A DNA stretch of 61,675 nucleotides from Candidatus Stahliibacteriota bacterium (GTDB lineage: Bacteria > Hydrothermota > UBA3073), in NCBI GenBank assembly GCA_030627085.1, contig DAOUSS010000001.1:1-61675 (forward strand), given 5' to 3'. A program made the position numbers and the translations under genes. Under the pieces are notes generated by a model. That model ran no database searches and was not told where the DNA came from. It saw only the letters and a program-made list of their open reading frames with translations. Shown here in pieces: positions 2,998 through 56,120 of this stretch. Within the stretch, counting starts at the first letter, position 1; each line of letters starts with the position of its first letter.

Positions 2998-3043
2998 ATA
3001 CCCTCAATCCCCACGTTACACAGGATTGAGGGTATTTTTATTT
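2998..3043 (+). terminator. intrinsic-terminator-like hairpin inside the porin leader
   Basis: ataccctcaatcc (2998-3010) / ggattgagggtat (3023-3035), 13-bp stem, 12-nt loop, followed by a T-rich tract (tttttattt). Confidence 0.6.
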
Positions 3044-3216
3044 ACCCTTGCGGCTTCCCTTACGCGAGGTTTGTAAGGTTCGTTTAAGTCAGCCCTGCGT
3101 ATCTTATGATACGCAGGGTAGTCCTTAAAACACAGTATTCCACTTTCTCCTTTAGCGAATTACGCCTTCAAAAAGAGGTAGAATTTGGAAAAATGATATA
3201 AATAAAAGGAGGCGAA

Positions 3217-4254
3217 ATGAAGAGAATAGGCTTTGTGATGGTAGGAGTTATGCTATTGGGATTTTTTGCTTCGCTGCAGGCAAAACCCTTTGAAAATGCT
3301 GCCCAGTCCTATATTCAGCAGGAAATCAGGTACACCCAGGATAAATTGACCTTTAGTGTCAGGAGAATGAGATTACGTTTCACTGGCAGTTTAGCCGATG
3401 GTAAATTAGCTTATAGGCTGGAACCGGCATTTGAAAAGGATGGCAGGTCACTTGATGTGAAGTTTGCCTACGCCGATATCAAATACATGGCTCCCTATTT
3501 TAACATCAGGGTTGGTAAGTTCTGTACCCCATCCAATGTAGAGGTCTATTGGACCTGGCCACCCAAGCAACTAACAGTATGGATTAACCCCATTACAAGA
3601 AAGATTTGGGAGGTAGGCGACCTCTTTGACTATGGAGTACAGGGCAGTGGAACCTTTAAATTGGGGGCCGAGTCTAACTTGGGCTACATAGTGTCGGTAA
3701 CTAATGGCAAGGGTTCAGGAATAGCAGCAAATCCTGATGGCAAGGTTGATATTTGCGGCAGGGTTAATCTTACCCCCATTAAGGGACTACAGATAGGTGG
3801 TTGGACACAACTTGTAAATGCTTATGTTGCTGCTCTAGATTCGATAGATAAGCGCACTCTATCCGGGATAGATGTTTGGTATACAGGCTATGGACTTGAT
3901 ATCCGTGGCGGGTATGATATGGGAGATGCTGGTGATTTTGGCATAATAACGGTTGATGGAAGGACTGGAAAATACACCGGTTTCCATATTATGGGTGGTT
4001 ACAGCTTCGAGACACCTGTGGAGGCTTTTGAAATAGGCACCTTAGAAGTCCAGCCTGTTATCAATTACTCATCCTATGCTCCTGATATCGATGGAGTTGA
4101 CCCTGCTACTGTTATTACTCCTGGTGTGAACCTATACCTGGGTGAGAACCTCAAGTTTATGCTCAACTATAGGATGATCACCGACGAAGATGGAGCCTAC
4201 TTTGCATCAGATGACAATGTATTCGAGATGAGGACACAGGTACTGTTCAAATAA
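3217..4254 (+). CDS. outer-membrane porin-like beta-barrel (possibly phosphate-selective OprO/P-like)
   Basis: RBS aaaggagg, signal peptide (MLLGFFASLQA), amphipathic beta-strand periodicity throughout, C-terminal MRTQVLFK. Assignment to the OprO/P family is tentative. Confidence 0.55.
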   Translation: MKRIGFVMVGVMLLGFFASLQAKPFENAAQSYIQQEIRYTQDKLTFSVRRMRLRFTGSLADGKLAYRLEPAFEKDGRSLDVKFAYADIKYMAPYFNIRVGKFCTPSNVEVYWTWPPKQLTVWINPITRKIWEVGDLFDYGVQGSGTFKLGAESNLGYIVSVTNGKGSGIAANPDGKVDICGRVNLTPIKGLQIGGWTQLVNAYVAALDSIDKRTLSGIDVWYTGYGLDIRGGYDMGDAGDFGIITVDGRTGKYTGFHIMGGYSFETPVEAFEIGTLEVQPVINYSSYAPDIDGVDPATVITPGVNLYLGENLKFMLNYRMITDEDGAYFASDDNVFEMRTQVLFK

Positions 4255-4326: not shown

Positions 4327-5235
4327 ATGTTAAATAAAATCAAAATATCAAGTTTTCTGGTGATTATTGCACTGTTTTTAATGCTAATTCCCTGTGCTAT
4401 GAATGCCGGTATCCCTAGTGAATACGAGGGTGGGGTGTATTCTTACGAGTTAGCCCGAGTAATCCAGGTACCAGGAAGACAGGGAATTGCTTCGGACGGG
4501 GATTACTACTATGTCAGTTGCAGTAAGGCTCTTTATAAGTGCGATAAAAATGGAAAGATACTTTTGGCAAATAAGGAGCCATTTAAAACATTCCCCAAAG
4601 AAGCCGTGTGTAACCACATAGGAGACATAGATTACTATAATGGTGAGCTTTATATAGGTGCGGAGGAGTTCAAGGAAGGAAGAGGTTTTAACATACAGAT
4701 TGCAATATACGATGCCAAGAGGTTAAAGTATAAACGTTCCATACCTTTTGATGAGAAGTCCGGACAAATAGAAGTCTGTGGAATGACTGTAGATCCTATT
4801 CGTAAGGTAGCATGGATGTCTGATTGGTGTAGTGGTAGATATCTTTATCAGTATGACCTCACGACTGGCACATATATTGGTAAATTACACTTGCAGCCGC
4901 CACCAGAGAAGCAACAAGGAGTCTATTATTATGATGGGAATCTGTTTATCACGGCAGACGATGGGGATGCTAATGACTGGGAGCATGACCATATGTACTG
5001 GGCAAATGCGAATCCCTCCGCAACCTATGCACCAGTGAAGTTAGAGAAAACATTTAGCGAATTCACCCGTACAGGCGAAATTGAAGGTATGTGCGTTGAC
5101 CCAAAGACTGGACAATTTCTAGTCCTATTCAATAGGGGAACTAAAGTTGTCGAAGGGATGCCTGTAGGTTTTTACACTGGTTATGAGAAAGAGATACACG
5201 AGTTGTACATATACAATATAACTAAGTCCCCATAA
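4327..5235 (+). CDS. secreted protein of unknown function (repetitive, possibly beta-propeller-like)
   Basis: ATG 4327 sits 8 nt after aggagg; the track start TTG 4297 lies inside the repeat. Signal peptide (FLVIIALFLMLIPCAMNA). Recurrent D-G-(D/N)-hydrophobic blade-like motifs (DGDYYYVS, YNGELYIG, YYYDGNLFITADDGD, IEGMCVDP). The fold call is inference. Confidence 0.5.
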   Translation: MLNKIKISSFLVIIALFLMLIPCAMNAGIPSEYEGGVYSYELARVIQVPGRQGIASDGDYYYVSCSKALYKCDKNGKILLANKEPFKTFPKEAVCNHIGDIDYYNGELYIGAEEFKEGRGFNIQIAIYDAKRLKYKRSIPFDEKSGQIEVCGMTVDPIRKVAWMSDWCSGRYLYQYDLTTGTYIGKLHLQPPPEKQQGVYYYDGNLFITADDGDANDWEHDHMYWANANPSATYAPVKLEKTFSEFTRTGEIEGMCVDPKTGQFLVLFNRGTKVVEGMPVGFYTGYEKEIHELYIYNITKSP

Positions 5236-22947: not shown

Positions 22948-22974
22948 ATATAAAATAAATCAAATATAAAAATT

Positions 22975-23189
22975 AACCGCAGAGGTCGCAGAGGCCACAG
23001 AGAACACAGATAGCTCAAAGCTTAAATATCAAAATTACCGCCCGGCAGGCATACTACATCTTGAATTTTTGTCCTTTCCGTCGGGAGGTAACTCCCGACG
23101 GCACAGAGGGGGTAACTCCCGACGGCATAGAGGGTCGCGTGGTGTCAAGAGTTACCGACCCAGTGGTGTCAGGAGTTACCTCCTGACAC
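22975..23189. repeat. intergenic repeat block: 9-bp cgcagag/cacagag array plus three GC-rich hairpins
   Basis: aaccgcagaggtcgcagaggccacagagaacacagatag (22975-23013); ccgtcgggag-gtaa-ctcccgacgg (23078-23101) with a second ggtaactcccgacgg copy; gtgtcaggag-ttac-ctcctgacac (23166-23189). Confidence 0.8.
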
Positions 23190-23229
23190 AAATTCCTGCA
23201 GGCTGGAAAATATAAGATGATCACTGAAA

Positions 23230-25248: not shown

Positions 25249-25277
25249 TTGACAATTGGATTATTTTACGTTATAAT
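25249..25277 (+). promoter_or_regulatory. sigma70-type promoter TTGACA-N17-TATAAT for the efflux operon
   Basis: ttgaca 25249-25254, 17-nt spacer, tataat 25272-25277. Divergent from the trpS promoter. Confidence 0.6.
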
Positions 25278-25424: not shown

Positions 25425-25574
25425 ATGGAGAATAGACATCCTCTTACAGAACGAATAATAGCCTGTTGTTATAGAATTCACTCTGAATTAGGGCCAGGAT
25501 TTAATGAGAAAGTATATCACACTGCTCTGAAATTGGCTCTTAATCGAGGAAGGTTAAATTATGAATCGGTGTAA
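25425..25574 (+). pseudogene. truncated GxxExxY-family (PD-(D/E)XK-like) gene fragment
   Basis: Encodes MENRHPLTERIIACCYRIHSELGPGFNEKVYHTALKLALNRGRLNYESV*, which matches only the N-terminal third of the intact paralog at 38526-39065 (LTNRIIKACINVHTQLGPGFLESIYHKALEIELKKQGL). Confidence 0.65.
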
Positions 25575-25607: not shown

Positions 25608-27014
25608 ATGAATCCAAGGACTTACATCTTGGTTTGTGTTCTATTTTCTGTATTCTTTTTATGGAATGAAGCGGTCCCTTTCGAGGGAAATGAAGCGGTT
25701 ATCACTCTCCCGGAGGCAATTGAGATGGCTCTGGAGCACAACGAGGGTATCCTCGGGGCAAGGGATGCGGTGAGAGAGGCGGAGGCGAGCGTGGTTATTG
25801 CAAGGTCAGGATTTCTGCCAAAAATAAGTGCTCAAGTGAGCTACACCAGACTTGCAGAACTTCCCGCAATTGAAATGGAGGCACCGAAATATGGCATGAT
25901 GGAGGTACCTGTATTTGGTCCCATGGGAGATACAATAGGTTTCACTGTTGTGCCCGGTATCGTGGGTACAGATATTATGAAGTACCAGATGGGAGAGACC
26001 AAAAATTATGTGGGAAGGACATCACTACAGCAGCCCCTCTTTACCTGGGGAAAGATTTCAAATGGCTATCAAATCGCGAATTTGAATGTAGAAGCATCAC
26101 AAGAAGATTACAGAAAACAGAAAAATGAATTGGTTTTCAATGTCACAAAATCATTCTATGGTATTCTTGTAATGAGAGAGCTTGTAAAATTGACTGAAGA
26201 GGCGTACAAACAGACCGCAAATCACATGGATGCCGTGGAAAAAAGATATAAGGCGGGAGTTGCATCGAACTTCGACCTCTTAAGAGCAAAGGTTCAACTC
26301 AAGAATATGGAACCTCAGGTGATCAAGGTCAAAAATGGTTTAGAGCTCGCGAAAACCGGATTCAAGGCACTCCTTGGTCTACCGCAAGACACAATAATCA
26401 ACTTGGAAGGAGAGCTGGATGTAGATGTGGGGACACAATATATTGTGCCCCTACAGGAGAGTATAGATTATGCTAAGTCAAACCGTCCTGAGGTGAAGGC
26501 TCTGGAATTAAGAAAAGAGATGGCGGGCAAGGCACTTGCAATTGCAAAGAAGGCAAACTGGCCCAACATAGCCCTCACCGCAAATTATGACTACAAGAAA
26601 CCAGTTTACTTCAAGAATGAGTGGGGGACAGATTGGAATATCACAGTTGCTTTACAGATGCCTATATTTACAGGGTTTGGAAATCTTGGAAAAACACGAC
26701 AGGCAAAGTATCAGTTCTCCCAGGCAGAACATGGACTCAATCTACTAAAGGAAGGCATAGAAATGGAGGTAAGGGCATCTTACCTCCAGCTTGAGGAGGC
26801 AAAAAAAATTGTAGAATCTCAAAAAGAAAATATTGCACAGGCAGAAGAAGCGCTTTCAATTGTGGAAGAGAGATATAAACAGGGTCTTGCTACTTCGTTG
26901 GAAGTAATGGATACACAGCTTGCCGTGACGAAAGCAAAGACGAACTGGCTCCAGTCACTATCAGATTACTTAATAGCGAAGGCAAAATTAGAAAAAGCAA
27001 TAGGGAAACAGTAA
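25608..27014 (+). CDS. TolC-family outer-membrane efflux protein
   Basis: Signal peptide, LPEAIEMALEHNEGILGA start of the OEP repeat, and a second repeat (IDYAKSNRPEVKAL). ATG 25608 follows gggggag. Confidence 0.85.
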   Translation: MNPRTYILVCVLFSVFFLWNEAVPFEGNEAVITLPEAIEMALEHNEGILGARDAVREAEASVVIARSGFLPKISAQVSYTRLAELPAIEMEAPKYGMMEVPVFGPMGDTIGFTVVPGIVGTDIMKYQMGETKNYVGRTSLQQPLFTWGKISNGYQIANLNVEASQEDYRKQKNELVFNVTKSFYGILVMRELVKLTEEAYKQTANHMDAVEKRYKAGVASNFDLLRAKVQLKNMEPQVIKVKNGLELAKTGFKALLGLPQDTIINLEGELDVDVGTQYIVPLQESIDYAKSNRPEVKALELRKEMAGKALAIAKKANWPNIALTANYDYKKPVYFKNEWGTDWNITVALQMPIFTGFGNLGKTRQAKYQFSQAEHGLNLLKEGIEMEVRASYLQLEEAKKIVESQKENIAQAEEALSIVEERYKQGLATSLEVMDTQLAVTKAKTNWLQSLSDYLIAKAKLEKAIGKQ

Positions 27015-27039
27015 GGAGTAAACAGTAAGGAGTAAGCAG
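27009..27039. repeat. heptamer array (agtaagg-type), 5' arm of the stem enclosing the four-helix-bundle ORF
   Basis: cagtaaggagtaaacagtaaggagtaagcag. Its reverse complement matches 27437-27453 perfectly over 17 nt and partially beyond. It overlaps the tolC stop codon. Confidence 0.85.
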
Positions 27040-27043
27040 AGGA

Positions 27044-27433
27044 ATGACTATGGCACATAGCAGGGAATACAAAGGGTTTCGGGATTTGAAGGCATACCAG
27101 TTGGCATACAAATTGGCGATGAAGATTTTTGAAGAGACCAAGCATTTCCCCGTCGAGGAGAAATACGGCTTAACGAGTCAAATCAGAAGGTCATCACGCT
27201 CTGTTCTTGCTAATATTGCAGAAGCGTGGAAGAAAAGAATTTACAAGAAGGCATTTGTAAATAAATTGATAGATAGCTATGGAGAGGCAGGGGAAACAGA
27301 AGTATGGTTAGATATGTCTCTTGATAGTGGTTATCTGGGTAAAGAAAAACATAAATACTTTCTTAACGGGTATGAGGAAGTAGGCAAAATGTTATATGGA
27401 ATGATTAGTCAACCAGAGAAATTTTGTTCCTGA
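27044..27433 (+). CDS. four-helix-bundle protein ('23S rRNA intervening-sequence protein' family)
   Basis: FRDLKAYQLAYKLAMKIFEETKHFP..EKYGLTSQIRRSSRSVLANIAEAW is the hallmark N-terminus of this family. About 125 aa. The start could be ATG 27050. Confidence 0.85.
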   Translation: MTMAHSREYKGFRDLKAYQLAYKLAMKIFEETKHFPVEEKYGLTSQIRRSSRSVLANIAEAWKKRIYKKAFVNKLIDSYGEAGETEVWLDMSLDSGYLGKEKHKYFLNGYEEVGKMLYGMISQPEKFCS

Positions 27434-27436
27434 TAC

Positions 27437-27500
27437 TGCTTACTCCTTACTGCCTACTGCTTACTGCCTACTGCTTACTGCCTACTTCTTACTGCTTACT
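27437..27500. repeat. heptamer array (tactgcy x ~9), 3' arm of the stem enclosing the four-helix-bundle ORF
   Basis: ctgcttactccttactgcctactgcttactgcctactgcttactgcctacttcttactgcttact, with a period of 7. Confidence 0.85.
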
Positions 27501-27515
27501 AAAATAAGGGGGAAG

Positions 27516-28403
27516 ATGAAAAAATTAGGCTGGATTACAGTGGTTGTTATTGTAGGAGCTATCGCTTGTCGAATCGTCCAATACTTTAAGACAGGAGAAC
27601 CCGTAAAATCTGTGACTGAGGTTGCAACTGAGGTAGTAATAGAAGAGGTTAGAAGGGATTACATTGCTCAGACTCTTTCCTATACTGGAAATATTGCAGG
27701 TGAAGAACAAGTAACTGTTCACCCTATTGAAGAAACTGGCAGATTGATTAAATATTTGGTTAAAGAAGGGGATGTAGTCAAAAAGGGGCAGGTAATTGCC
27801 CTTGTAGATAGGTCTATTAAGGGTATGGAATTTCAATCTGCAAAGATTACATCACCAATATCAGGAATTGTAGGGATGTTATTTCTTGATAAGGGAGCAA
27901 TGGTGGCGCCGCAGACTCCAATTGCTATGATTGCTGATATAGACAGAATAAAAGTGAAGATTCAGGTCGTAGAAAGAGACTTGCCAAAGGTTCATAAAGG
28001 ACAATCGGCGGTTATAACAGTGAATGCTTATCCAGATAAAAAGTTTCAGGGTAAATTAAAGCAGCTCTCTCCATTTGTTAATCCGATGACAAAAGCGTCG
28101 AAGGGAGAGATTATCGTGCCAAATCAAGAACATCTCTTAAAGCCTGGGATGTTTACGAGGGTAGAATTAATAATAGAGGAACATACCAACACCATTGTGG
28201 TTCCCGAAAAAACGGTTATTGAAAAGGATGGCAAGAGAGTCGTTTTTGTTTTGAAAGAAGAGTATGCGGAGATGCGAGAGGTTGAGACCGGTATTGAAAA
28301 CGAAGGTTCCATTGAAATATTAAAAGGATTAAAAATAGGAGAAAAGGTTATCACCTTGGGTAATTATGGACTCCGGGACGGAGCAAAAGTGAGGGTAAAA
28401 TGA
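27516..28403 (+). CDS. RND efflux periplasmic adaptor (MFP/HlyD family)
   Basis: N-terminal anchor, lipoyl-like hairpin (GDVVKKGQVIALVD ... SPISGIV), C-terminal beta-barrel. The stop overlaps the RND pump start. Confidence 0.9.
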   Translation: MKKLGWITVVVIVGAIACRIVQYFKTGEPVKSVTEVATEVVIEEVRRDYIAQTLSYTGNIAGEEQVTVHPIEETGRLIKYLVKEGDVVKKGQVIALVDRSIKGMEFQSAKITSPISGIVGMLFLDKGAMVAPQTPIAMIADIDRIKVKIQVVERDLPKVHKGQSAVITVNAYPDKKFQGKLKQLSPFVNPMTKASKGEIIVPNQEHLLKPGMFTRVELIIEEHTNTIVVPEKTVIEKDGKRVVFVLKEEYAEMREVETGIENEGSIEILKGLKIGEKVITLGNYGLRDGAKVRVK

Positions 28404-31400
28404 ATCTACCCCAGTTTTCTGTAAATAGAAGGGTTACTATCACTATGGTGGTCCTCATAATAGTCCTCTTGGGATTCATATCGTTGAGTAAACTTGGGCT
28501 GGACCTCCTTCCAGATATTGAATACCCTGTTGTAAGTATAATGACAACCTATCTGGGTGTAGCTTCTCAGGAGATGGAAGAGCAAGTAACGAGACCAATA
28601 GAAGAATCAGTCTCAATGATAAGTGGGGTAAAATCTGTAAGTTCGAGCTCAGAGGAAGGCGTTTCAGTAGTAATCGTGGAATTTGAGTGGGGAACCAACC
28701 TTGATTTCGCAGCACAGGATATCAGGGATAGGATTGGTCTCATTGGGGATTGGCTTCCCGAGGATGTTTCAACCCCTCTGGTCCTTAAATTTGACCTCTC
28801 TATGATGCCGGTTGTCTTTTATGGTGCCACGGGTAATTGTAATCTGAAGGAACTTCGTAAAGTCCTTGAAGAAAGGGTGAAAGACAGAATAGAAAGGATA
28901 AACGGAGTAGCATCCTGTATGTTAATGGGAGGCCAAGAGAGGGAAATAAATATATCCATTGATAAAGCAAAACTTGTCTCCTATAATCTTGGGCTCACCC
29001 AAGTTATATCAGCACTCCGGACAGCAAATTTAAATTTTAGTGCAGGACATATCATCCGGGGATACAAAGAATATTCAATAAGGATAGTGGGAGAATATGA
29101 AAGCATTGACGAGATAGGGAATACAATAATAGGTGGTAAACAGGAAAGCCCTATCTATCTCAAAGACATCGCAGAACTCAAAGATACACATAAAGAGATC
29201 AGGAGCTATGGAAGAACACAGGGGAAAGAAAGTATCGTGGTGTTCATAACAAAACAGGCTGGATCAAATACTGTAGTAATTTCCAATAAAGTAACCAAAG
29301 AAATCGAAAAGATCAAGACTTCCCTTCCTCACAATATACAACTTCATCTGTTTTTTGACCAAGGGGATATGATAAAGAAAATAAGCAAAAGGACCGGGGA
29401 AACTGCTCTCTGGGGTGGTATCTTTGCTATTTTGTTTATATTCTTTTTCTTGCGGAACTGGAGACCCACTCTAACCATTGCTCTTGCTATACCATTTTCA
29501 ATCATTGTGACCTTCATAGCCATTTACTTTGCTGGTTATACTCTCAATCTGATGACTCTTGCAGGAATAGCCCTTGGGGTTGGGATGTTGGTTGATAATG
29601 CTGTAGTGGTGATTGAAAACATACATCGGAAAATGGAAGAAGGAAGCGATAGAAAGGATGCTGCAATATATGGAACCACAGAAGTTGGAATGGCAATTAC
29701 AGCCTCAACACTCACTACTGTCTCTGTATTTGTACCCCTTATTTTTTCTGCTGGCATTGCAGGCAGATTGTCCAGAAGCCTTGCTCTTACAATATCCTTT
29801 GCTCTTTTTGCATCTCTCTTTATAGCTTTTACTTTAGTCCCTATGCTCGCATCCACATTATTTAAAAAAAGGAGGGAAATCCCATGGGAGAGAAAGTTTG
29901 ATAAATTCAGAGGAAAATATGGAAGATTTCTACAATACGCTCTTACCCATAGAAGGAGGACACTTTTAACGACAGTTGTAATATTTATTATCACATTGTG
30001 CCTAATTCCTCTTGTAGGTACAGAATTTATGCCCCAAATGGACATACCTTTCTTATCAATAAATGTTACAATGCCCGTTGGAACCTCTCTTGAAGAGACA
30101 AATAGAGTTTCCTCCGAACTTGAGAATATTTTTAAGGATATCCCAGAAGTAGAAAATACAAGTTCTTGGATAGGGCTGAGTGAGGCAACGCAATATGATG
30201 TGGCGTACGGGTCAATGAGTGCAGGAGTAAATCAGGCTCAGGTGATGGGAAAATTAGTTGAAAGAAATGCTCGTAAAAGGTCTGCCCAGGAGATTATAGA
30301 GGAGATAAGAAAAAAGATTCCTCATATAGAAGGAGCAAATATAGAATTTGCTGATATGGGAGGGCAAATGTTTGGAGGTGGAGGCGGACCTCCAATAAAT
30401 GTAAAGATTTTTGGCAAAGATTTATCCATTCTCAAAAGAATCTCCGAACAAATCGCATCCGAAATAGACGATGTAAAAGGTATAAAGGATATAGATACAT
30501 CTCTCAGGCAAGGGAAACCAGAATTGCAAGTAAGGATTGATAAAGAGAAAGCGGCTCTATTTGGGTTAACTGTGTATCAGATAGGGCAGGAAGTGAGGAC
30601 AGCTACTCAAGGTATGGTTGCTTCAAGATTCAGAGAAAAGGGTGAAGAAGTAGATATGTTAGTAGAATTTAGAAATGAGGATGTGAAGGCAGTAAAGGAT
30701 ATTGAAAATATTCCTATTATGACTCCTCCTGGCACAAGTATTCTTTTGAAACAAGTTGCAGAGATAGTTTTAACTGAGGGTCCCGTAAGGATAGAAAGAG
30801 AAGAGCAAAACAGGAAGGTCTCGGTTACTGCAAATATTGAGCACAGAGATTTAGGAAGTGTTGTGGGGGATATTGCGAAGAAGGTTGAGCCAATAAAAAA
30901 GACCCTTCCATCGGGCTATTCGATAGAATTTGGTGGCGAATATGAACAGATGAAAGAAACTTTCATAACTCTGGGTATTGCCTTCATTCTCGCTATAATC
31001 CTTATATATATGGTAATGGCTGCCCAATTTGAATCATTTGTTCATCCATTTGTCATAATGTTTACTATGCCATTAGCTTCCGTAGGGGTAATTTGGGCAT
31101 TATTTATCACCCATAAGGCAGTATCAATGCCAGCCCTTATGGGAGTGATAATCCTTGCAGGTATTGTAGTAAATAATGCTATAGTATTTATAGACTATAC
31201 CAATCGTCTACGGAAGAAGGGATTGGAGATATACGAAGCCCTTATATTAGCTGGAAAAACGAGGTTGAGACCCATTCTAATAACCGCTTTTACAACTATT
31301 TTAGGAATGTTACCTATGGCACTCAGTCGTTCTGAAGGTTCAGAGATGAGGTCCCCTATGGCTATTGTGGTAATGGGTGGATTATTTGTTTCCACACTAC

Positions 31401-31501
31401 TCACTCTAATAGTTATTCCCATTATCTACACAATTTTTGATGACCTCGCACAGAAACTAAGGGCAAGGACAAAGAGGGTTATACATGGAGATGAAGGATA
31501 G
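28400..31501 (+). CDS. RND efflux transporter permease (AcrB/HAE1-like)
   Basis: 1033 aa, 12-TM/two-large-loop architecture, conserved GIALGVGMLVDNAVVVIENI and LAGIVVNNAIVFIDY segments. Confidence 0.95.
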   Translation: MNLPQFSVNRRVTITMVVLIIVLLGFISLSKLGLDLLPDIEYPVVSIMTTYLGVASQEMEEQVTRPIEESVSMISGVKSVSSSSEEGVSVVIVEFEWGTNLDFAAQDIRDRIGLIGDWLPEDVSTPLVLKFDLSMMPVVFYGATGNCNLKELRKVLEERVKDRIERINGVASCMLMGGQEREINISIDKAKLVSYNLGLTQVISALRTANLNFSAGHIIRGYKEYSIRIVGEYESIDEIGNTIIGGKQESPIYLKDIAELKDTHKEIRSYGRTQGKESIVVFITKQAGSNTVVISNKVTKEIEKIKTSLPHNIQLHLFFDQGDMIKKISKRTGETALWGGIFAILFIFFFLRNWRPTLTIALAIPFSIIVTFIAIYFAGYTLNLMTLAGIALGVGMLVDNAVVVIENIHRKMEEGSDRKDAAIYGTTEVGMAITASTLTTVSVFVPLIFSAGIAGRLSRSLALTISFALFASLFIAFTLVPMLASTLFKKRREIPWERKFDKFRGKYGRFLQYALTHRRRTLLTTVVIFIITLCLIPLVGTEFMPQMDIPFLSINVTMPVGTSLEETNRVSSELENIFKDIPEVENTSSWIGLSEATQYDVAYGSMSAGVNQAQVMGKLVERNARKRSAQEIIEEIRKKIPHIEGANIEFADMGGQMFGGGGGPPINVKIFGKDLSILKRISEQIASEIDDVKGIKDIDTSLRQGKPELQVRIDKEKAALFGLTVYQIGQEVRTATQGMVASRFREKGEEVDMLVEFRNEDVKAVKDIENIPIMTPPGTSILLKQVAEIVLTEGPVRIEREEQNRKVSVTANIEHRDLGSVVGDIAKKVEPIKKTLPSGYSIEFGGEYEQMKETFITLGIAFILAIILIYMVMAAQFESFVHPFVIMFTMPLASVGVIWALFITHKAVSMPALMGVIILAGIVVNNAIVFIDYTNRLRKKGLEIYEALILAGKTRLRPILITAFTTILGMLPMALSRSEGSEMRSPMAIVVMGGLFVSTLLTLIVIPIIYTIFDDLAQKLRARTKRVIHGDEG

Positions 31502-31677: not shown

Positions 31678-31705
31678 CTGATACTGTGAAAAATAATACG
31701 AAAGA

Positions 31706-31926
31706 AACCACAGAGGTCACAGAGATAAATCAAAAATCAAAATGTAAATATCAAAATTATCCTCGGGATCCGTATGGACATATTAAAATGTAAAATTTAT
31801 TCCGGTTGGGCATAAACTGAAGGCTGATTGAGAATCTTTCCTAGAAAACATTTTTGAATTTTGATTTGTCATTTTGCATTTTGATATTTGATTTTTACAT
31901 TTCTATCTTTTGTGTTCTCTGTGGTT
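31706..31926. repeat. 221-bp inverted-repeat element with CCACAGAG-type termini in the era 5' UTR
   Basis: Left arm aaccacagaggtcacagagataaatcaaaaatcaaaatgtaaatatcaaaatt (31706-31759); right arm gaattttgatttg...tgtgttctctgtggtt (31856-31926). The termini are identical to those of the element at 53790-53961. Confidence 0.85.
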
Positions 31927-31959
31927 AGGTTTTTTACAATGTCGATCTAAATTGTATCT

Positions 31960-32826: not shown

Positions 32827-32833
32827 AAAATAG

Positions 32834-32906
32834 CCCACAGAATACACGGAATACACTGAAGAAATAAATGAAAAATAAATCCCGTGGTCTCCGTGTCCTC
32901 CGTGGG
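32834..32906. repeat. 9-bp-word hairpin (cacagaa/cacggaa vs ctccgtg)
   Basis: cccacagaatacacggaatacac (32834-32856) pairs with cccgtggtctccgtgtcctccgtggg (32881-32906), between era and gatB. Confidence 0.8.
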
Positions 32907-32923
32907 AGATAAGATTAACCAAA

Positions 32924-34336
32924 ATGCAAGAATACGAAGCAGTCATAGGAATGGAGCTTCATGTTCAACTCAAAACAAGGACTAAACTCTTTTGTTCTTG
33001 CCCAGTTGAGTCTGAAAGCGAAGCCAATACACTTGTATGTCCTATCTGCGCAGGGTTTCCCGGAACTCTTCCTGTATTAAATGAAGAGGCGGTAAAACTT
33101 GCTGTGCGTACTGCTCTGACACTTGGATGCAAAGTAAATAAAATGTCTGTCTTTTCAAGGAAAAACTATTTCTATCCCGACCTACCTAAAGGTTATCAGA
33201 TAACGCAATATGAACATCCGTTGGCAGAAGAAGGAAAGTTAATAATAGGAAATAGAAATATAAGGATAAGGAGGGTCCACCTTGAGGAAGACTCAGGAAA
33301 ACTTATACATACAGAAGATACAACCCTTATCGACCTCAACAGAGCAGGAGTTCCACTTGTAGAGATAGTCACCGAGCCTGATATTCACTCTCCAAAAGAG
33401 GCATATAGTTATATAACAAAATTAAGGGAAATCTTAAGATATATTGGTGTATCAAATGCGGATATGGAAAAGGGTGAACTCCGATGCGAGCCGAATGTAT
33501 CTGTTCACCGTAAAGGAGAACCTCTCGGAACAAGAAGGGAAATAAAAAATCTAAACTCAATAAGACAGGTAGAGAATGGAATAAAATATGAGATAGAACA
33601 ACAGATAAATTCACTGAAGAAGGGAAGACCTGTAGAACGGGCAACTCTCCTCTGGGATGAGAAACAAAAAGTAACAAAAGTGATGAGAAGGAAAGAAACA
33701 GAAGAGGATTACAGGTACTTTGATGAGCCTGATCTTCCACCGCTCTGTATATCAGATTCTTTCCTAAAGGAACAATGGAATTGTATAGGAGAACTCCCTG
33801 ATGAAAGGAGAGAGCGAGTGCGTAAACAGTATGGATTGGCTCAAAATGACGCAGACACCCTCGTCTCAAGGAAACTTCTGGCCGATTATTTTGAGGATGT
33901 AACGAAAATAACAAAAGATGCAAGACTTACAGCAGGTTTTATACTCGTGGAACTGCTCGGCTTTCTGAACGAAAATAGTATAAGGATCGAAGATAATCCC
34001 ATCTCTCATACGAGCCTATCCGAACTTATCTCTCTCATGAAAAAAGGCGTCATAACCAGAACGGTTGCGAGAAATATACTACCAAAGATAACCAAAGGAC
34101 AGTCTCCGATGAAAGTTGTTAAACAGCTTGGTCTTGAGAAAATGGAGGAAAAAGAGGAAATGGAGAAGATTGTACAGGGTGTTCTGAATAAATATCCAGA
34201 TGAGGTTAAAAGATACAAAGAAGGCAAAAGTGGACTCTTTGGTTTCTTTGTGGGAGAGGTTATGAAGGCAACGAGAGGAAAGGCTAATCCGAACATTGTA
34301 GGCGAACTACTGAAAGAGCGGCTAAGTAAAATTTAA
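32924..34336 (+). CDS. gatB: Asp-tRNA(Asn)/Glu-tRNA(Gln) amidotransferase subunit B
   Basis: YEAVIGMELHVQL...CPICAGFPGTLPVLN N-terminus and the C-terminal YqeY/GatB tail (FGFFVGEVMKATRGKANP). Confidence 0.95.
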   Translation: MQEYEAVIGMELHVQLKTRTKLFCSCPVESESEANTLVCPICAGFPGTLPVLNEEAVKLAVRTALTLGCKVNKMSVFSRKNYFYPDLPKGYQITQYEHPLAEEGKLIIGNRNIRIRRVHLEEDSGKLIHTEDTTLIDLNRAGVPLVEIVTEPDIHSPKEAYSYITKLREILRYIGVSNADMEKGELRCEPNVSVHRKGEPLGTRREIKNLNSIRQVENGIKYEIEQQINSLKKGRPVERATLLWDEKQKVTKVMRRKETEEDYRYFDEPDLPPLCISDSFLKEQWNCIGELPDERRERVRKQYGLAQNDADTLVSRKLLADYFEDVTKITKDARLTAGFILVELLGFLNENSIRIEDNPISHTSLSELISLMKKGVITRTVARNILPKITKGQSPMKVVKQLGLEKMEEKEEMEKIVQGVLNKYPDEVKRYKEGKSGLFGFFVGEVMKATRGKANPNIVGELLKERLSKI

Positions 34337-34528
34337 ACCACAGAGACCAAGCCACTGATTGCACTGATTAGTTAGATTTCAGATTTTAGAAGGATACTAT
34401 ACCCTACGACGCTACGACTCTATGACCCAATGACTCAATGACCAAATAACCTAATGACCTAATAACTATGTTAATCTGCGTTAATCTGCGTCCAATTCTC
34501 TTTTTGTTTCTCTGTGTACTCTGCGGTT
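34336..34528. repeat. 193-bp composite element bounded by aaccacagag ... ctctgcggtt
   Basis: The interior carries cactgatt x2, ctacgac/aatgacc arrays (34401-34467) and ttaatctgcg x2 (34470-34493). The inner part is an inverted copy of 55937-56010. Confidence 0.8.
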
Positions 34529-34686
34529 AAAATTATGAAGAAGATTACACGAAGAAAATTTATTAAGTTTCTGGGAATTTTTGGCATTTTCCTTTTTATT
34601 CCCAAAATCAAGCTGAGAATAAAGGGGAAAAGGGTTACGAAATCCGAACTTCGCAAAAAACATAATCTTGCAGGATAGTTTTTTTC

Positions 34687-36637: not shown

Positions 36638-36870
36638 ATATCAAATATCAAATAGTAAAAATTAAAAATCTCAAGATGATAAATCTTAAATCCGAAATCC
36701 TAAATTCTAAACAATATTTAAATTTCAATTCTCAAAATTCCAAACATGTTTTGAATAGATGTCTGTCGACAAGCAAGATTGGAATTTAGAATTTGGAATT
36801 TGTTTAGGATTTAGAAATTAGAATTTAGAAATTTTGTGTCTTTATATGTATCTTTGATTTTTGATATTGT
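36638..36870. repeat. ~230-bp inverted-repeat element built of atcaaat / aaatcc / aattcc words
   Basis: The left half (36638-36745: atatcaaatatcaaata, aaatccgaaatcctaaattctaaacaa, tcaattctcaaaattccaaac) is mirrored by the right half (36777-36870: ggaatttagaatttggaatttgtttaggatttagaaattagaatttag...tctttgatttttgatatt). Confidence 0.8.
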
Positions 36871-46983: not shown

Positions 46984-49500
46984 ATGCGGGGTAAAATTAT
47001 GGCTAAGGAAAAAAGAAAAAGGGTAACCGAGAAACTGTCTGAGGGATCACATTTAAAGTTATCCGATAGTATTTTAAATAAGATATTCATTGCTATCTTT
47101 TTCATCCTACCCCTAATATACTTTGCTCCATTTCTATCCGGCAGCAAGATGATAGCGGGTTCTGACTGGCTTTTATCCGGCTATATTCCCGCAAGGTGGC
47201 TCACAAATTGTATAAAACACTATGAAGGTGGTCCATTGTGGAATCCAAATGTCTTTGGTGGACTTCCTATGGGTAATCCCTATAGTCTTTACACACTCTT
47301 TTATCTGGCTCTACCGGTTCATATTGTATTTACATATTCCTTTGTCCTTGCAATATTCCTTGCAGGACTGGGAATGTACCTGTATCTGAAAGAATTGAGG
47401 TTCCCCATTCTCATCTCATTTCTCGGCGGCATAGCATATATGTTTTGTGGTTCACTTCTTTCCACACCATATGCAGGACATCTTGGTAAGTCTTTAGCCT
47501 CTGCTCTATTTCCATTTATCCTTCTATTTCTACATAAAGGACTTACAAAACACAACTTCATATATTTTCTGATTGCGGGTGCACTTGGGGCTCTTTCTGC
47601 AACCCACGCACACTTCCAGCTCACATATTATGCGGGAGTGGTGTGTGCCTTTTATTTACTCTTTCACCTCATCTGGCAAAGAAAGGAAAACAAAATCAAG
47701 GGGACTGCCAAACTTATAATTTACTCTATCTTTGCACTTATTTTAGCCGGAGGACTGGTATCAATACATTATTTACCAATATTCAGTGATTTCGGGTGGG
47801 GGTCAAGAGGTGGGTTGGAGAGGGGCTATGCGTTTGCAACCTCTTGGTCAGTTCCAACCTCTGAACTTTTAGATTTATTAACCCCTCACTTCTCGGGATT
47901 GTTAAATAATTACTGGGGAGAGAATTATTTCAAACTGCATACAGAATACCTTGGTATACTTCCACTTCTTTTAGCTCTCATTGGAATAGCAGTTAAGTAC
48001 AGGAAAAAATATGTTAGATTCTTCATTGGACTTGGTGTGATTGCAACACTATTTGCACTCGGTGGACATACCCCATTTTACAGAATACCTTATTACCTTC
48101 TCCCCAGAGTAAATAAGTTCAGGGCTCCATCAATGGCGTTTTATCTTGTTGCATTTTCTGTTATAGTCCTTGCAGCATATGGAATAAAGGCAATAATAGA
48201 CCAGAGACAGGAGACCAGAGACAAAAGACCAAAGACAATAGACCGAAGACAAAAGAATCTTGCTATTTATCTTCTTACAATATTTGGTATTGTCGCCATT
48301 TTTACACTTGTTTGCTCGGTCGGGAAGGAATCTATCCTTTCTTTTATGAAAGGACACTTCCAACCAATTTTGATGAACCAGTATGGGCCACAACTCATAC
48401 AGCAAAAGATACAAAATTTCTATCAAAATTATCCCTATTTCCTCAACGGACTGGGCAAGGCACTCTTCTTGATAGCCCTGAATTCTGTTCTCATTATTCT
48501 CCTGGCGATGAGAAAGTTAAAACTCCCAGCATGGATACTAATGGTAACACCCATTCTAATATTTGACCAGTGGAGTATTGAAAAACACTTTTTAAAGAGT
48601 GTGTCACATCCAAAGGTATATTATGCACCCGACAGCGTTGTGAATTTTCTTAAAAAAGATAAAACACTCTATCGGGTATTTCCCTTTAACTACGAACATA
48701 CAACCGATTCTTATCTTACTCTGTATAATATCCAGAGTTTGGGGGGGTATGTATCCAATCCCGGTTGGAGATATCAGAAACTTATTGGTGCTGGCGAGAG
48801 TGTTATGTTTAATCCCCGTAATCTGATAATATATCCTCATCTCCTTGATGTACTGAATGTAAAGTATATTATATCCTATACACTTCCAGATGATATATCA
48901 AGATATGATGAAAAGACTCAAGGTTACATACGAGAATTGAGAAACTATCTCTCGCAGTTTAAAGAGGTTACGAGAGGAGGAAAATACAGTGTGTATTTAA
49001 ATACTAACTACATTGAAAGGGCATTTATAGTAAAAAACTATAAAATATTTGATAATCTTGACTCTCTTCTTTCGTTTATGCTTGCTCCTTCCTTCAATCC
49101 GAGAGAAGTTGTTCTTCTTGAAGAAGAGCCAGAGGGCAATTTCCAATTTCCAATTTCCAATTCCCAATCTCAGAAGGATTTGGAAGAAGTGCACATTAGA
49201 GAATACGGTCCTAATAAGATTATATGTGAGACTGCACTTGAATCTCCGGGTTTCCTCGTCCTCTCTGAAAACTGGCATCCTAACTGGAAGGCTTATGTTG
49301 ATGGAGAAGAAGAGAAAATATATATAGCAGATTACACATTGCGCACAGTCTATCTACCTGAAGGAAAGCATGTTGTGAGATTTGTATATGTATCAAAGGC
49401 ATTTAAGATTGGCTCTATTATTTCCATTCTTTCTCTTATATTCTTTGTTGGGGTCGTGGTGTGGTGGGGAATATCAAAACGCCGATACCGTGAAAAATGA
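46984..49500 (+). CDS. YfhO-family polytopic membrane glycosyltransferase-like protein (GT-C-like)
   Basis: 838 aa. The N-terminal half has more than 10 TM helices (SGSKMIAGSDWLLSGY..., GGPLWNPNVFGGLPM) and the C-terminal half is extracytoplasmic with a final TM helix. The start could be ATG 46999. Confidence 0.7.
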   Translation: MRGKIMAKEKRKRVTEKLSEGSHLKLSDSILNKIFIAIFFILPLIYFAPFLSGSKMIAGSDWLLSGYIPARWLTNCIKHYEGGPLWNPNVFGGLPMGNPYSLYTLFYLALPVHIVFTYSFVLAIFLAGLGMYLYLKELRFPILISFLGGIAYMFCGSLLSTPYAGHLGKSLASALFPFILLFLHKGLTKHNFIYFLIAGALGALSATHAHFQLTYYAGVVCAFYLLFHLIWQRKENKIKGTAKLIIYSIFALILAGGLVSIHYLPIFSDFGWGSRGGLERGYAFATSWSVPTSELLDLLTPHFSGLLNNYWGENYFKLHTEYLGILPLLLALIGIAVKYRKKYVRFFIGLGVIATLFALGGHTPFYRIPYYLLPRVNKFRAPSMAFYLVAFSVIVLAAYGIKAIIDQRQETRDKRPKTIDRRQKNLAIYLLTIFGIVAIFTLVCSVGKESILSFMKGHFQPILMNQYGPQLIQQKIQNFYQNYPYFLNGLGKALFLIALNSVLIILLAMRKLKLPAWILMVTPILIFDQWSIEKHFLKSVSHPKVYYAPDSVVNFLKKDKTLYRVFPFNYEHTTDSYLTLYNIQSLGGYVSNPGWRYQKLIGAGESVMFNPRNLIIYPHLLDVLNVKYIISYTLPDDISRYDEKTQGYIRELRNYLSQFKEVTRGGKYSVYLNTNYIERAFIVKNYKIFDNLDSLLSFMLAPSFNPREVVLLEEEPEGNFQFPISNSQSQKDLEEVHIREYGPNKIICETALESPGFLVLSENWHPNWKAYVDGEEEKIYIADYTLRTVYLPEGKHVVRFVYVSKAFKIGSIISILSLIFFVGVVVWWGISKRRYREK
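48198..48253 (+). repeat. 4 x 14-bp tandem repeat inside the YfhO CDS
   Basis: agaccagagacagg / agaccagagacaaa / agaccaaagacaat / agaccgaagacaaa, which encodes DQRQETRDKRPKTIDRRQK. Confidence 0.9.
49137..49171 (+). repeat. 5 x 7-bp tandem repeat inside the YfhO CDS
   Basis: caatttc x3, then caattcc and caatctc, which encodes NFQFPISNSQS. The same word family is found in intergenic 36781-36802. Confidence 0.9.
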
Positions 49501-49517
49501 AAGAAACCATGTATTTG

Positions 49518-49586
49518 AACCACAAAGGGCACAAAGAGAAGCTACTTATTCTTATAAACTTTGCGTTCTTTGTGAACTTTGTGGTT
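49518..49586. repeat. 69-bp hairpin of cacaaag/ctttgtg 9-bp words between yfhO and fabH
   Basis: aaccacaaagggcacaaagag (49518-49538) versus ctttgcgttctttgtgaactttgtggtt (49559-49586). Confidence 0.85.
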
Positions 49587-49611
49587 AATTATAGAATAAA
49601 AAGGAGGAAGC

Positions 49612-50591: not shown

Positions 50592-51869
50592 TCAATCTTT
50601 CCATTCGTATACCCTTCCCCTGTAGAGGGTACATAATACCTTCCCATAGAGGTTCTTTCCTATGAAGGGGGAGTTCTTCGATTTCGACAGAAATCTCTGA
50701 GGAATCCACTCACGAGCTGGATCAACTATCGCAAGATTTGCATATTCTCCTGTGGATATGCCTTTGACAGGAAGTGAAAAAATCTTTGCGGGGTTGAGCG
50801 TGAATTTCCGAAGAAGCTGTTTTATATCCACAAATCCCGGTTTCACAAGATAAGTTATTCCACAGGCAAAAGCTGTTTCAAGCCCTATAACACCGGATGG
50901 AGCTTGGTCGAACTCAAGTTCTTTTTCAAAATCTGCATGTGGGGCATGGTCTGTTGCGATTGCATCAATCGTGTCATCTAAAAGTCCTTCAATTATTGCC
51001 TTTCTATCCACCTCTGTGCGTAACGGTGGATTTATCCTGTAATTTGTATCAAAGCCTCTCACACACTCATCTGTAAGTGAAAAATGATGTGGAGTTGCCT
51101 CACAGGTAACATTTACTCCTTCTTTTTTTGCCCTTCTTATGAGTTCAACAGACCCTTTTGTAGAGATATGTGCTATATGAAGTCTGGATTTTGTAAATTT
51201 TGCAAGTAAAATATCTCTCGCAATCATAGCCTCCTCAGCACAAGAAGGAATTCCGGAAAGCCCGAGTTCAGTGGAAACAATCCCTTCATTCATAACACCG
51301 GGAGAGAGATTTAAGTCCTCTGCATGGGATATAACAGGAATATCAAACTGTTTACAATACTCAAGTGCTCTTCTCATAATAAATGAATCCATAATAGGCA
51401 TTCCATCATCAGACACGGCAACACAACCCGCATCTACAAGATCACCAATCTCTGATAATTCTGTTCCCTTAAGTCCTTTTGTCACTGCGCCCACAGGATA
51501 CACATCACATACCTTCTCTGCCTCTTGTATATATCTCACTATCCCGATATTATCAACGGGCGGTTCCGTGTTTGCCATACATACAACTGCCTGATACCCA
51601 CCTTTAAGTGCGCTCATCGTACCTGATAGGATTGTCTCCTCATCCTCCCTCCCAGGCTCTCTTAAGTGTGTATGTATATCAATAAGTCCTGGTATAACCC
51701 ATAAACCCTTTGCATTAATCATCTTTCCCTTTTCCCTCTTCCCTCTTCTCTCTTCTCTCTTCCCTCTCACCCCCTTCACTCTCTCCCCTTCTATGAGGAT
51801 ATCAAAGGTGTCATCTGTATCTGTAAAAGGGTCTATCACCCTTGCATTTTTAATAATTAATTTAGCCAT
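50592..51869 (-). CDS. pyrC: dihydroorotase
   Basis: GLIDIHTHLREPG, ATDHAPH. Residues 33-49 (GVRGKREERRGKREKGK) are encoded by a purine-rich repeat tract (51723-51773). Confidence 0.9.
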   Translation of the reverse strand: MAKLIIKNARVIDPFTDTDDTFDILIEGERVKGVRGKREERRGKREKGKMINAKGLWVIPGLIDIHTHLREPGREDEETILSGTMSALKGGYQAVVCMANTEPPVDNIGIVRYIQEAEKVCDVYPVGAVTKGLKGTELSEIGDLVDAGCVAVSDDGMPIMDSFIMRRALEYCKQFDIPVISHAEDLNLSPGVMNEGIVSTELGLSGIPSCAEEAMIARDILLAKFTKSRLHIAHISTKGSVELIRRAKKEGVNVTCEATPHHFSLTDECVRGFDTNYRINPPLRTEVDRKAIIEGLLDDTIDAIATDHAPHADFEKELEFDQAPSGVIGLETAFACGITYLVKPGFVDIKQLLRKFTLNPAKIFSLPVKGISTGEYANLAIVDPAREWIPQRFLSKSKNSPFIGKNLYGKVLCTLYRGRVYEWKD

Positions 51870-52118
51870 AAGACGGTTGTAGTATTGTTTACCACAAAGA
51901 GCACAAAGGACACAAAGGCCTTAGATTTTAGATTGTGGGCGAATTGCTATTCGCCCCTACGAGATTGTTTGCCATTCCTGTAGCTCAAGGCCTTAGCCTT
52001 GATTATCAACCCTGAAGGGTTGAGTTACAATTGCTAATTTTGCATTGCTAATTGGTAATTGAATATCTTAGTTGCTCGATAGCCTGATAGCTTGATCGCT
52101 CGATAGCCTCTTCACCCA
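51870..52118. repeat. 249-bp pyrB-pyrC intercistronic spacer filled with repeat words and small hairpins
   Basis: accacaaagagcacaaaggacacaaagg (51891-51918), gggcgaat-tgct-attcgccc (51937-51956), caaccc-tgaa-gggttg (52007-52022), ctcgatagcc/tgatagc array (52074-52108). Confidence 0.8.
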
Positions 52119-53726: not shown

Positions 53727-53789
53727 CAAGTTTTTTGAAAATTTACGCAACATTTCTCAAAAATTTCCTTGATTGCATAGGAAAGTATA

Positions 53790-53961
53790 AAACCACAGAG
53801 GTCACAGAGGGAAGACATTTTTTATTTTATTCTCTGTGTCCTCAAATTCCTTATAAGATTTTTAAAATTTAGTTGGTGATAAATAGAGTTGGGAGATTGA
53901 ATATAGAGAGCACAGAGCCTTTGCCCTTTTTAAACAAAAATTCTCTGTGTTCTCTGTGGTT
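53790..53961. repeat. 172-bp inverted-repeat element with CCACAGAG-type termini
   Basis: aaccacagaggtcacagaggg (53790-53810) ... ttctctgtgttctctgtggtt (53941-53961). The outer 19 and 17 nt are identical to the termini of 31706-31926 but the interior is unrelated. Confidence 0.85.
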
Positions 53962-53971
53962 AATTTTTTCC

Positions 53972-55927: not shown

Positions 55928-55941
55928 AAGTGAGAATCATT

Positions 55942-56070
55942 GGACGCAGATTAACGCAGATAAGGACAGATAAAGACAGTAATTAGGTCATTAGGTAATT
56001 ATGTCATTAACTATCTGCATCATCGGTCAAGCAATCTTTTAATGACTTAATGACCTAATAACTCAATAAC
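55942..56070. repeat. repeat block: acgcagatta 10-bp array plus ggtcatt/aatgacc hairpin
   Basis: ggacgcagattaacgcagataaggacagataaagacag (55942-55979). aattaggtcattaggtaattatgtcattaa (55981-56010) pairs with ttaatgacttaatgacctaataactcaataac (56039-56070). Confidence 0.8.
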
Positions 56071-56120
56071 TTTAGCATATCCGTGTAAATCAGTGTCTAA
56101 AAAGAATTTGATTTGTCTAT

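Follow-up and report, generated by a model that had tools for sequence, protein, structure and literature searches.

A four-helix-bundle gene between complementary heptamer arrays as a probable intervening-sequence-type cassette in an efflux operon

Results

A small gene and two complementary arrays lie within an efflux operon

A 61,675-nt stretch of DNA from a Candidatus Stahliibacteriota bacterium (contig DAOUSS010000001.1; G+C 39%), here called the window, carries an efflux operon in which a small gene for a four-helix-bundle (4HB) protein stands between the genes for an outer-membrane efflux protein (OEP) and a membrane-fusion protein (MFP). The gene is bracketed by tandem heptamer arrays that are complementary to each other, and in related genomes the gene together with its arrays was found present, absent, internally deleted or replaced at this same junction. 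We refer to gene plus arrays as the cassette, which is built like the open reading frame (ORF)-bearing intervening sequences (IVSs) of 23S rRNA. Its features and those of the operon, all on the plus strand, are listed below; loci in other genomes are cited by L numbers.

25249..25277, plus strand: sigma-70-like promoter TTGACA-17-TATAAT, 12/12 match, kept in relatives L001 and L003
25584..27014, plus strand: OEP (TolC-like) gene (PF02321, E 6.8e-70)
26995..27039, plus strand: 5' strand of the predicted stem (37 bp, imperfect), reaching 14 nt back into the OEP coding sequence (RNAfold)
27009..27039, plus strand: 5' arm, tandem heptamers (C/G)AGTA(A/G)G, 4.4 copies (CAGTAAG) (Tandem Repeats Finder, TRF; inverted repeat; pattern search)
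27038..27043, plus strand: Shine-Dalgarno (SD)-like AGAGGA, 7 nt ahead of the ATG at 27050 and just inside the loop side of the stem (sequence)
27050..27433, plus strand: 4HB protein gene, 127 aa; the listed ORF begins at 27044 (PF05635, TIGR02436)
27434..27500, plus strand: 3' arm, tandem heptamers C(T/C)TACT(G/C), 9.6 copies (TRF unit TACTGCT), complementary to the 5' arm
27436..27476, plus strand: 3' strand of the predicted stem (RNAfold, arms only)
27507..27513, plus strand: AGGGGGA, SD of the MFP gene, beyond the stem and directly past the 3' array (sequence)
27516..28403, plus strand: MFP (periplasmic adaptor) gene (HlyD_D23 and related families)
28400..31501, plus strand: RND transporter gene (ACR_tran, E 3.4e-270)

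Four co-oriented genes (OEP, 4HB, MFP and RND) thus follow the promoter, which probably drives the OEP-4HB-MFP-RND transcript. Within the cassette we found no promoter comparable to the one at 25249-25277 and no terminator. The arrangement seen at the MFP gene, with the SD of the next gene right behind the 3' array, recurs at many other loci. An Rfam scan of the window returned one tRNA only, with no rRNA and no known RNA family at the arms; a 23S rRNA insertion site was accordingly rejected, the cassette lying between OEP and MFP genes.

The initial annotation had assigned the ORF at 27044-27433 to the family of proteins encoded in 23S rRNA IVSs. Profile matches confirmed this assignment (PF05635 23S_rRNA_IVP, E 1.6e-32, 112.3 bits against a cutoff of 33.8; TIGR02436, 106.1 bits against a cutoff of 24). 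Since close homologues are all 123-130 aa long and begin at the second ATG, the true coding sequence is probably 27050-27433 (127 aa). An AlphaFold 2 (AF2) model of the protein has four helices (pLDDT 93.3), and the top structures in a Foldseek search with it were XCC0516, BT_0352 and then bAvd (TM scores 0.83/0.93 for 2GSC, 0.76/0.85 for 2RLD and 0.74/0.87 for 4DWL, which is bAvd). The protein also matched PDB entries 2rld and 2gsc by sequence, both of which were deposited with five chains. The gene has a dN/dS of 0.10-0.26 and is under purifying selection. No second family member is present in the window.

The family at large is big, with 10,412 clusters at 50% identity in a single-sequence search. 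To our knowledge, no function has been assigned to these S23p/four-helix-bundle proteins since their discovery in rRNA intervening sequences about 30 years ago. The PADLOC defence-system models gave no match at E <= 0.01 for three 4HB subfamilies. A scan of viral contigs found no relatives of the window subfamily, so that a phage vehicle is without evidence.

The heptamer arrays of opposite polarity that had been described on either side of the ORF were recovered by TRF at 27009-27039 and 27434-27500. As the initial annotation had noted, the 5' arm overlaps the OEP stop codon (TAA, 27012-27014), which is contained in the first heptamer. The 17-nt inverted match between the arms is real and perfect, although its 3' copy had been placed one base too far to the right (27023-27039 pairs with 27436-27452); a search for this inverted match gave seven matches at <=2 mismatches where 0.01 were expected. 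Over 31 nt the arms are 90% complementary. They form the second-longest inverted repeat of the window and the sole one with an ORF-sized loop, and all nine AGTARG-array matches in the 61.7 kb fall in the two arms (0 expected). When 26990-27520 was folded, the arms paired (z = -5.5); an arms-only mini-hairpin gave 37 inter-arm base pairs in RNAfold (-53.8 kcal/mol, z = -7.2). The stem adjoins, without covering, the host stop codon and the next SD.

The junction turns over in related genomes

We reached orthologous junctions by a protein search with the MFP plus contig look-ups (a metagenome scan with the MFP protein gave only homologues of <=39% identity and was not used for junctions). The three closest 4HB homologues (L001-L003; 95, 92 and 90% identity) are syntenic, with the gene directly after OEP. 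The MFP gene comes next in L002 and L003, and the L001 contig stops within its 3' array. All three keep arms of the window heptamer type, with differences in copy number and unit variants; both arms are seen in L002 and L003, and no syntenic copy lacking arms was found among the three.

More distant relatives carry something else at this junction, or nothing. In L170 (MFP 64% identical) the OEP-MFP junction is empty and consists of the stop codon, 16 nt including the SD, and the ATG. In L164 and L165 (MFP 81%) we found a 134-nt remnant made of the 5' array, the SD, the first five and last eleven codons fused, and the 3' array, which equals a deletion of window positions 27064-27400 (337 bp); an ORF-less hairpin can therefore arise from a cassette. 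In L166 (MFP 84%) a 120-aa protein of another 4HB subfamily is encoded there between arms of its own, CAGTTRA x5 upstream and TYAACTG x5 downstream, with 39 inter-arm base pairs. L171 and L172 have a gene of a third 4HB subfamily between MFP and RND, flanked by complementary heptamers of a type of its own. At their OEP-MFP junction, these two loci (MFP 82%) and L167 and L168 (MFP 73%) hold a REP-associated tyrosine transposase (RAYT; NF047646, 119 bits) with arrays resembling repetitive extragenic palindromes (REPs), and L169 (MFP 69%) holds a REPIN-like palindrome. Every insertion falls precisely into the interval that separates the stop codon of the preceding gene from the ribosome-binding site of the following one. 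Turnover at this single junction thus includes presence, absence, deletion and replacement, and the comparison bears out the proposal that stem and ORF make up a discrete and dispensable unit.

Several details of these loci stand on their own. The empty L170 spacer (2633-2652) reads TAGTTAACAGggagg and has exactly one unit TTAACAG/TTGACAG, the unit arrayed around the L166 cassette (3020-3060); the 10-nt string tagttaacag is common to the two. This shared heptamer may be a coincidence, or arrays may be seeded from local sequence. The RAYT and REP arrays lie at 2797-3480 in L167 and 2860-3490 in L171, and the palindromes of L169 at 3425-3480 and 4385-4440. The REPIN-like palindromes in the OEP-MFP spacer of a relative (gtagggcaaggctttagccttgc...) have similar counterparts in the window at 241-387 and ~51950-52030.

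The cassette is also less diverged than its surroundings. Between the window and L001, synonymous divergence (dS) was 0.10 for the 4HB gene and 1.46 for OEP; against L002 it was 0.245 for 4HB and 1.68 for MFP, with OEP saturated; against L003 it was 0.52 for 4HB, 0.53 for OEP and 1.08 for MFP. The dS of the cassette was up to 14-fold below that of flanking genes. Nucleotide identity in sliding windows rose from ~75% to 94-100% at the cassette edges. In most syntenic pairs with homologous flanks, ORF identity exceeded flank identity, a few being on par (e.g., L031/L034).

Exchange of position was seen in L018 and L019, two WOR-3 assemblies that are ~94% identical. They carry two cassettes in the orders A-Y-B-X and B-Y-A-X (L018 1-1900, L019 2685-4460), so the cassettes have traded junctions on the two sides of a single gene, and shared remnants of array sequence, 49 nt long, lie at the breakpoints. 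L018 also holds a threefold higher-order repeat of ~65 nt built of CAGACYA units.

Inverted heptamer arrays accompany the family across phyla

One scan of species-representative genomes yielded 80 loci from ~20 phylum-level lineages (48-77% identity). Every ORF in these loci that reached 80 aa went through the same pipeline, those outside the family serving as controls. Flanks counted as inverted if the upstream one, aligned with the reverse-complemented downstream one, scored 30 or more. Inverted flanks were found around 52 of 83 family genes (63%) and around 9 of 439 control ORFs (2%; Fisher p = 3e-40), and the top-scoring "control" was an antisense ORF across a frameshifted family gene. Complementary flanking arrays are therefore the rule for the family across phyla; a lack of them around other copies, which the initial annotation had named as refuting its reading, is not what we found. 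An earlier control, in which the upstream flank of one locus was paired with the downstream flank of another, was replaced by the same-locus ORFs because arms share sequence across loci, which makes swapping a poor null.

Tandem periodicity in the flanks was specific as well. Period 7 occurred in 34-39% of family flanks, with essentially none at periods 5, 6, 8 and 9. At least three AGTARG units upstream or CYTACT units downstream were present in 46 of 56 copies of the window subfamily (those >=57% identical to the window protein), compared with 4 of 27 copies of other subfamilies and 14 of 439 controls. Polarity was reversed in three upstream flanks only and in no downstream flank. Exceptions with a CYTACT-type array upstream occur among L057 (3500-4366), L066, L012 and L070; in L057 this is because two family genes stand in tandem. 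Other subfamilies carry heptamers of their own (CAGACYA, GAGTCGT, CGTGAAT, TAGCCGG, GAGTGGGA, GTAGAGA and CAGTTRA). The heptamer tracks the protein subfamily, not the host or the site, and the gene and its arms act together as a single unit with polarity.

An independent sample came from the plasmids of cultured cyanobacteria, with eight copies, all from complete records. Five to six of them have GCAGRGG-type arrays upstream and CCYCTGC-type arrays downstream. Family genes in the scanned loci were co-directional with both neighbours in 80% of cases, compared with 64% of controls (p = 0.007). In a literature search that lacked most subscription journals, we met no paper in which these proteins are tied to inverted heptamer arrays on their flanks outside rRNA.

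Other hairpins and repeats

By eye, the window holds about six ORF-less hairpins made of inverted arrays, four of which fold significantly better than shuffles (31700-31940, 36672-36838, 49512-49592 and 53785-53965; z = -3.9 to -6.9); those at 34334-34535 and 55935-56080 fall short of fold significance. Their arms are inverted arrays of 7-9-nt units (AAAATCA/TTTTGAT, TAAATCC/GGATTTA, CCACAGAG/CTCTGTGG and ATTAGGTC/TTAATGAC), and they sit in the spacers of housekeeping genes (RND-Era, rhomboid-enolase and others). Relatives can have a different array type in the same spacer as an ORF-less hairpin of the window. For the rhomboid-enolase spacer, which holds the TAAATCC hairpin, relatives had no 4HB gene but only the same or a different array hairpin.

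A second small gene family was met in this neighbourhood. In close relatives (rhomboid 98% identical), the Era-GatB spacer contains a 132-aa PDDEXK_3/GxxExxY gene. Direct copies of a ~75-nt hairpin flank this gene in L183 (1338-1403 and 1803-1880), and the window has that hairpin once, at 32833-32905, without the gene. This hairpin-ORF-hairpin topology recalls integron cassettes, unlike that of the 4HB cassette. The leader of the efflux operon (25425-25574) holds a 49-codon fragment of the GxxExxY/PDDEXK_3 type (TIGR04256 residues 2-42 of 116, 40.6 bits). At the leader position L001, L003 and L166 have a MarR gene, which has been lost from the window, where this remnant of another small "gene-let" family takes its place.

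Further repeats have other forms. L003 carries at 2840-2960, in its TrpRS-MarR spacer, a ~170-nt hairpin of inverted 13-nt arrays (ggtcaccctggtc x3 and gggtgacgaagtaa x3), which neither L001 nor the window has in that spacer. Between two minus-strand genes of the window, positions 22970-23200 contain CCGCAGAGG x2.9, two copies of a 24-nt unit and an inverted repeat of 49 nt, a complex block that folds strongly (z = -6.1). Heptamer arrays of AGACAAG, CAATTTC and TTCCCTC (up to nine copies) at 48198-48256, 49137-49168 and 51725-51791 lie inside long listed (putative) ORFs, 46984-49500 on the plus strand and 50592-51869 on the minus strand.

Discussion

A probable exchange of cassettes at array-bearing junctions

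Taken together, these results describe a stem-plus-ORF unit that occurs in mRNA spacers across phyla, has arms specific to the protein subfamily, and undergoes gain, loss, deletion and swapping at a single junction; this is, to our reading, what is new here. We consider it very probable that the element is a discrete, exchanged cassette of the IVS type. The fuller explanation that we favour, and hold to be rather likely as a whole, adds two parts to this horizontally exchanged cassette, namely processing of its stem in RNA and use of its arrays as homology handles in DNA.

By this explanation, the cassette would have lodged in a former stop-to-SD spacer of ~16 nt between the OEP and MFP genes. 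With neither promoter nor terminator found inside it, the cassette would be transcribed from the operon promoter, together with the operon. In the transcript, the arms are predicted to pair into ~37 bp of imperfect double-stranded RNA (dsRNA) with the ORF looped out, leaving the host stop codon and the ribosome-binding site of the next gene at the base of the stem. RNase III may then cut the stem, by analogy with the IVSs of Coxiella, Leptospira and Salmonella, a tentative step whose chances we put slightly short of even. Cleavage would free a 4HB mRNA that keeps its SD, would part the OEP message from the MFP-RND message, and would limit the harm done by an insertion of ~500 nt in the operon. 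If so, many operons, here one for a multidrug-type efflux pump, would be split post-transcriptionally by a parasite. In DNA, the arrays would probably be short homology handles for the exchange of cassettes between array-bearing sites and genomes, and slippage would change their copy number. They might, alternatively or additionally, be binding sites for a 4HB pentamer.

Several observations weigh against this explanation. Mismatches in the 52 arm pairs, read on the sense strand, comprise 50 G·U and 49 A·C; because there is no asymmetry between the two, the structure is not assignable to sense RNA, and the complementarity of the arms could equally be kept at the DNA level. Inverted flanks are not clear in 37% of family genes, and of the eight cyanobacterial copies one has no arrays and another, on an Oscillatoria PCC 7112 plasmid (L175), has G-rich arrays in direct orientation. 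We identified no transposase, recombinase or target-site duplication, and no transposase domain is present in the cassette; the sole empty site, L170, belongs to a diverged species, and it and the filled junctions are too diverged for a target-site duplication to be read. Synonymous constraint or gene conversion, instead of repeated transfer, could account for part of the excess of ORF over flank identity. Finally, the sequences compared are mostly metagenome assemblies, yet four independent ones agree on this junction.

That sense-strand mismatches show no preference for G·U over A·C is also a point in favour of arms that work only in DNA, either as recombination or transposition ends or as arrays of pentamer binding sites, comparable to the subterminal repeats of some transposons, with the RNA stem an unprocessed by-product. 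Such arms would likewise accommodate the trading of junctions at shared array remnants, the sharp breaks in identity at the arrays, the match between heptamer and protein subfamily, and the presence at the same junction in relatives of RAYT, a single-strand hairpin transposase. However, RNase III cleaves the Coxiella IVS, the only element with this build to have been studied by experiment, within its heptamer-bearing stem (PMC4990558). The co-orientation with both neighbours, at 80%, and a polarity fixed to the coding strand fit a need for transcription through the unit; a dsRNA of 37 bp in an mRNA is very unlikely to evade RNase III, and the four-helix-bundle fold has no known catalytic activity. 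We regard a purely DNA-level role of the arms as unlikely.

Alternatively, stem and small protein could be a regulatory module of the host that benefits the cell by adjusting OEP expression relative to that of MFP-RND. The gene is indeed kept at the junction in four related assemblies, its protein is under purifying selection, and the stem abuts the host stop codon and SD but leaves them free. Orthologous operons nevertheless work with an empty spacer, a remnant, another cassette or a RAYT, the same cassette occurs in unrelated operons of many phyla, and it is younger than its flanks, all of which makes a host module very unlikely.

Nor do we give much credence to the idea that the arrays are generic simple-sequence hairpins of the genome (terminators, stabilisers or products of slippage) with a gene between them by chance. 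The ORF-less inverted-array hairpins of the window, four of them with significant folds, speak for it, as do the 70-75 convergent (inverted) GGGAATC array pairs of Xanthomonas, for which no gene link has been reported (PMC4692102). It is strongly disfavoured by the confinement of AGTARG arrays to the 4HB gene in 61.7 kb, by the same heptamer flanking the same subfamily in ~20 phyla (46/56 vs 14/439 controls), by different subfamilies bringing different heptamers to one junction, and by the L164 remnant, an ORF-less hairpin that is itself derived from a cassette.

An accessory Avd gene, or the remnant of a diversity-generating retroelement (DGR), is the most improbable origin and was rejected, since the matches that hint at it are below cutoff (bAvd PF22296, 35 bits vs 40; NF033474, 28.7 bits vs 80), no template/variable repeat pair is present, and no reverse transcriptase is encoded among the ten neighbouring ORFs scanned (~9 kb upstream, 7 kb downstream), which are housekeeping genes, the structural likeness to 4DWL notwithstanding.

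Returning to the exchanged IVS-type cassette, a possible but rather doubtful extension is that 4HB genes with their cognate inverted arrays are an unrecognised class of mobile cassettes without a transposase, in which the pentamer reads its own array. If true, one class would cover the ORF-bearing IVSs of rRNA, the orphan 4HB genes wedged into operons and the unexplained intergenic heptamer arrays. IVSs would then be one special case of a general cassette, and thousands of orphan "four helix bundle protein" genes would be explained. The arrays that Xanthomonas, cyanobacteria and others carry, inverted pairs included, would be deletion derivatives, resembling transposable elements of the miniature inverted-repeat type (MITEs), which offers a candidate origin for heptamer arrays that have had none. 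Recognition of the cognate heptamers by the pentamer, in RNA or DNA, would drive excision, protection or spread. Copies of the same build on plasmids of cultured Nostoc and Tolypothrix strains make the cassette experimentally accessible.

Comparison with known systems

Stems between the cistrons of a polycistronic RNA that RNase III cuts are known from the early mRNA of phage T7, where the cut parts the messages and the hairpin ends left behind protect them. The T7 stems are short hairpins with a regulatory role, not mobile and with no ORF in the loop.

The Avd protein of the Bordetella phage BPP-1 DGR (bAvd, 4DWL) has a homologous four-helix-bundle fold and is a pentamer that binds nucleic acid and reverse transcriptase. 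Unlike it, the cassette lacks a nearby reverse transcriptase and template or variable repeats, and its protein scores under the Avd profile cutoffs.

MITEs share with the cassette inverted termini, presence/absence polymorphism and internally deleted derivatives that retain only the ends, as in L164/L165. We identified neither a transposase, as carried by the autonomous parents of MITEs, nor a readable target-site duplication for the cassette, and where MITEs have terminal inverted repeats of fixed form, it ends in tandem arrays whose length varies.

REPIN/RAYT systems likewise combine a single small gene with hairpin-forming repeats and have ORF-less hairpin derivatives in intergenic spacers. 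The 4HB protein differs in not being a Y1 transposase and in having no known catalytic motif, and in place of REP palindromes the cassette has arms of tandem heptamers. A RAYT identity of the window gene was rejected, as it is not a Y1_Tnp member.

Intergenic heptamer repeats are known as GGGAATC in Xanthomonas and GGGGA(C/T)T in Nostoc (PMC4692102), as TAACTGA in Beggiatoaceae (PMC4679880) and among the cyanobacterial STRR (short tandemly repeated repetitive) sequences. Like the arms of the cassette, they have a period of 7 and variable copy number, and lie between genes that are mostly co-oriented, near the end of the upstream gene. The papers on them propose G-quadruplex or translational roles and report no associated gene (PMC4692102, PMC4679880). 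Unlike these repeats, the cassette arrays bracket a specific gene family, with a unit sequence that matches the protein subfamily.

The closest resemblance is to the ORF-bearing 23S IVSs of Coxiella burnetii, Leptospira, Brucella and Haemophilus. In Coxiella, an S23p ORF lies within a 28-bp stem of terminal inverted repeats, two to three tandem GACAGAT heptamers stand just upstream of the ORF in strain-dependent number, and RNase III excises the IVS, cutting on the 5' side where the first repeat begins; IVSs are still said to be of unclear origin (PMC4990558, Warrier et al. 2016). Members of the family have also been seen wedged between cas genes (PMC3936711) and, in bacteria of the candidate phyla radiation (CPR), scattered over several rRNA insertion sites (PMC11270868). 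The host molecules differ, the cassette residing in an mRNA spacer between protein genes and the IVS in helix 25 or 45 of 23S rRNA. The cassette ORF has a good SD on the loop side and is under purifying selection, whereas cleavage strips the Coxiella ORF of its SD and that ORF is in decay. RNase III cuts the Coxiella IVS; for the window cassette, a cut by this enzyme is a proposal. In both, however, a protein of the same family is encoded in the loop, terminal inverted repeats make a stem of ~28-40 bp, and the 5' arm contains tandem heptamers. Copy number varies between strains in the one and among the window, L001, L002 and L003 in the other. Both are sporadic and horizontally scattered, and in both the ORF can decay while the stem persists.

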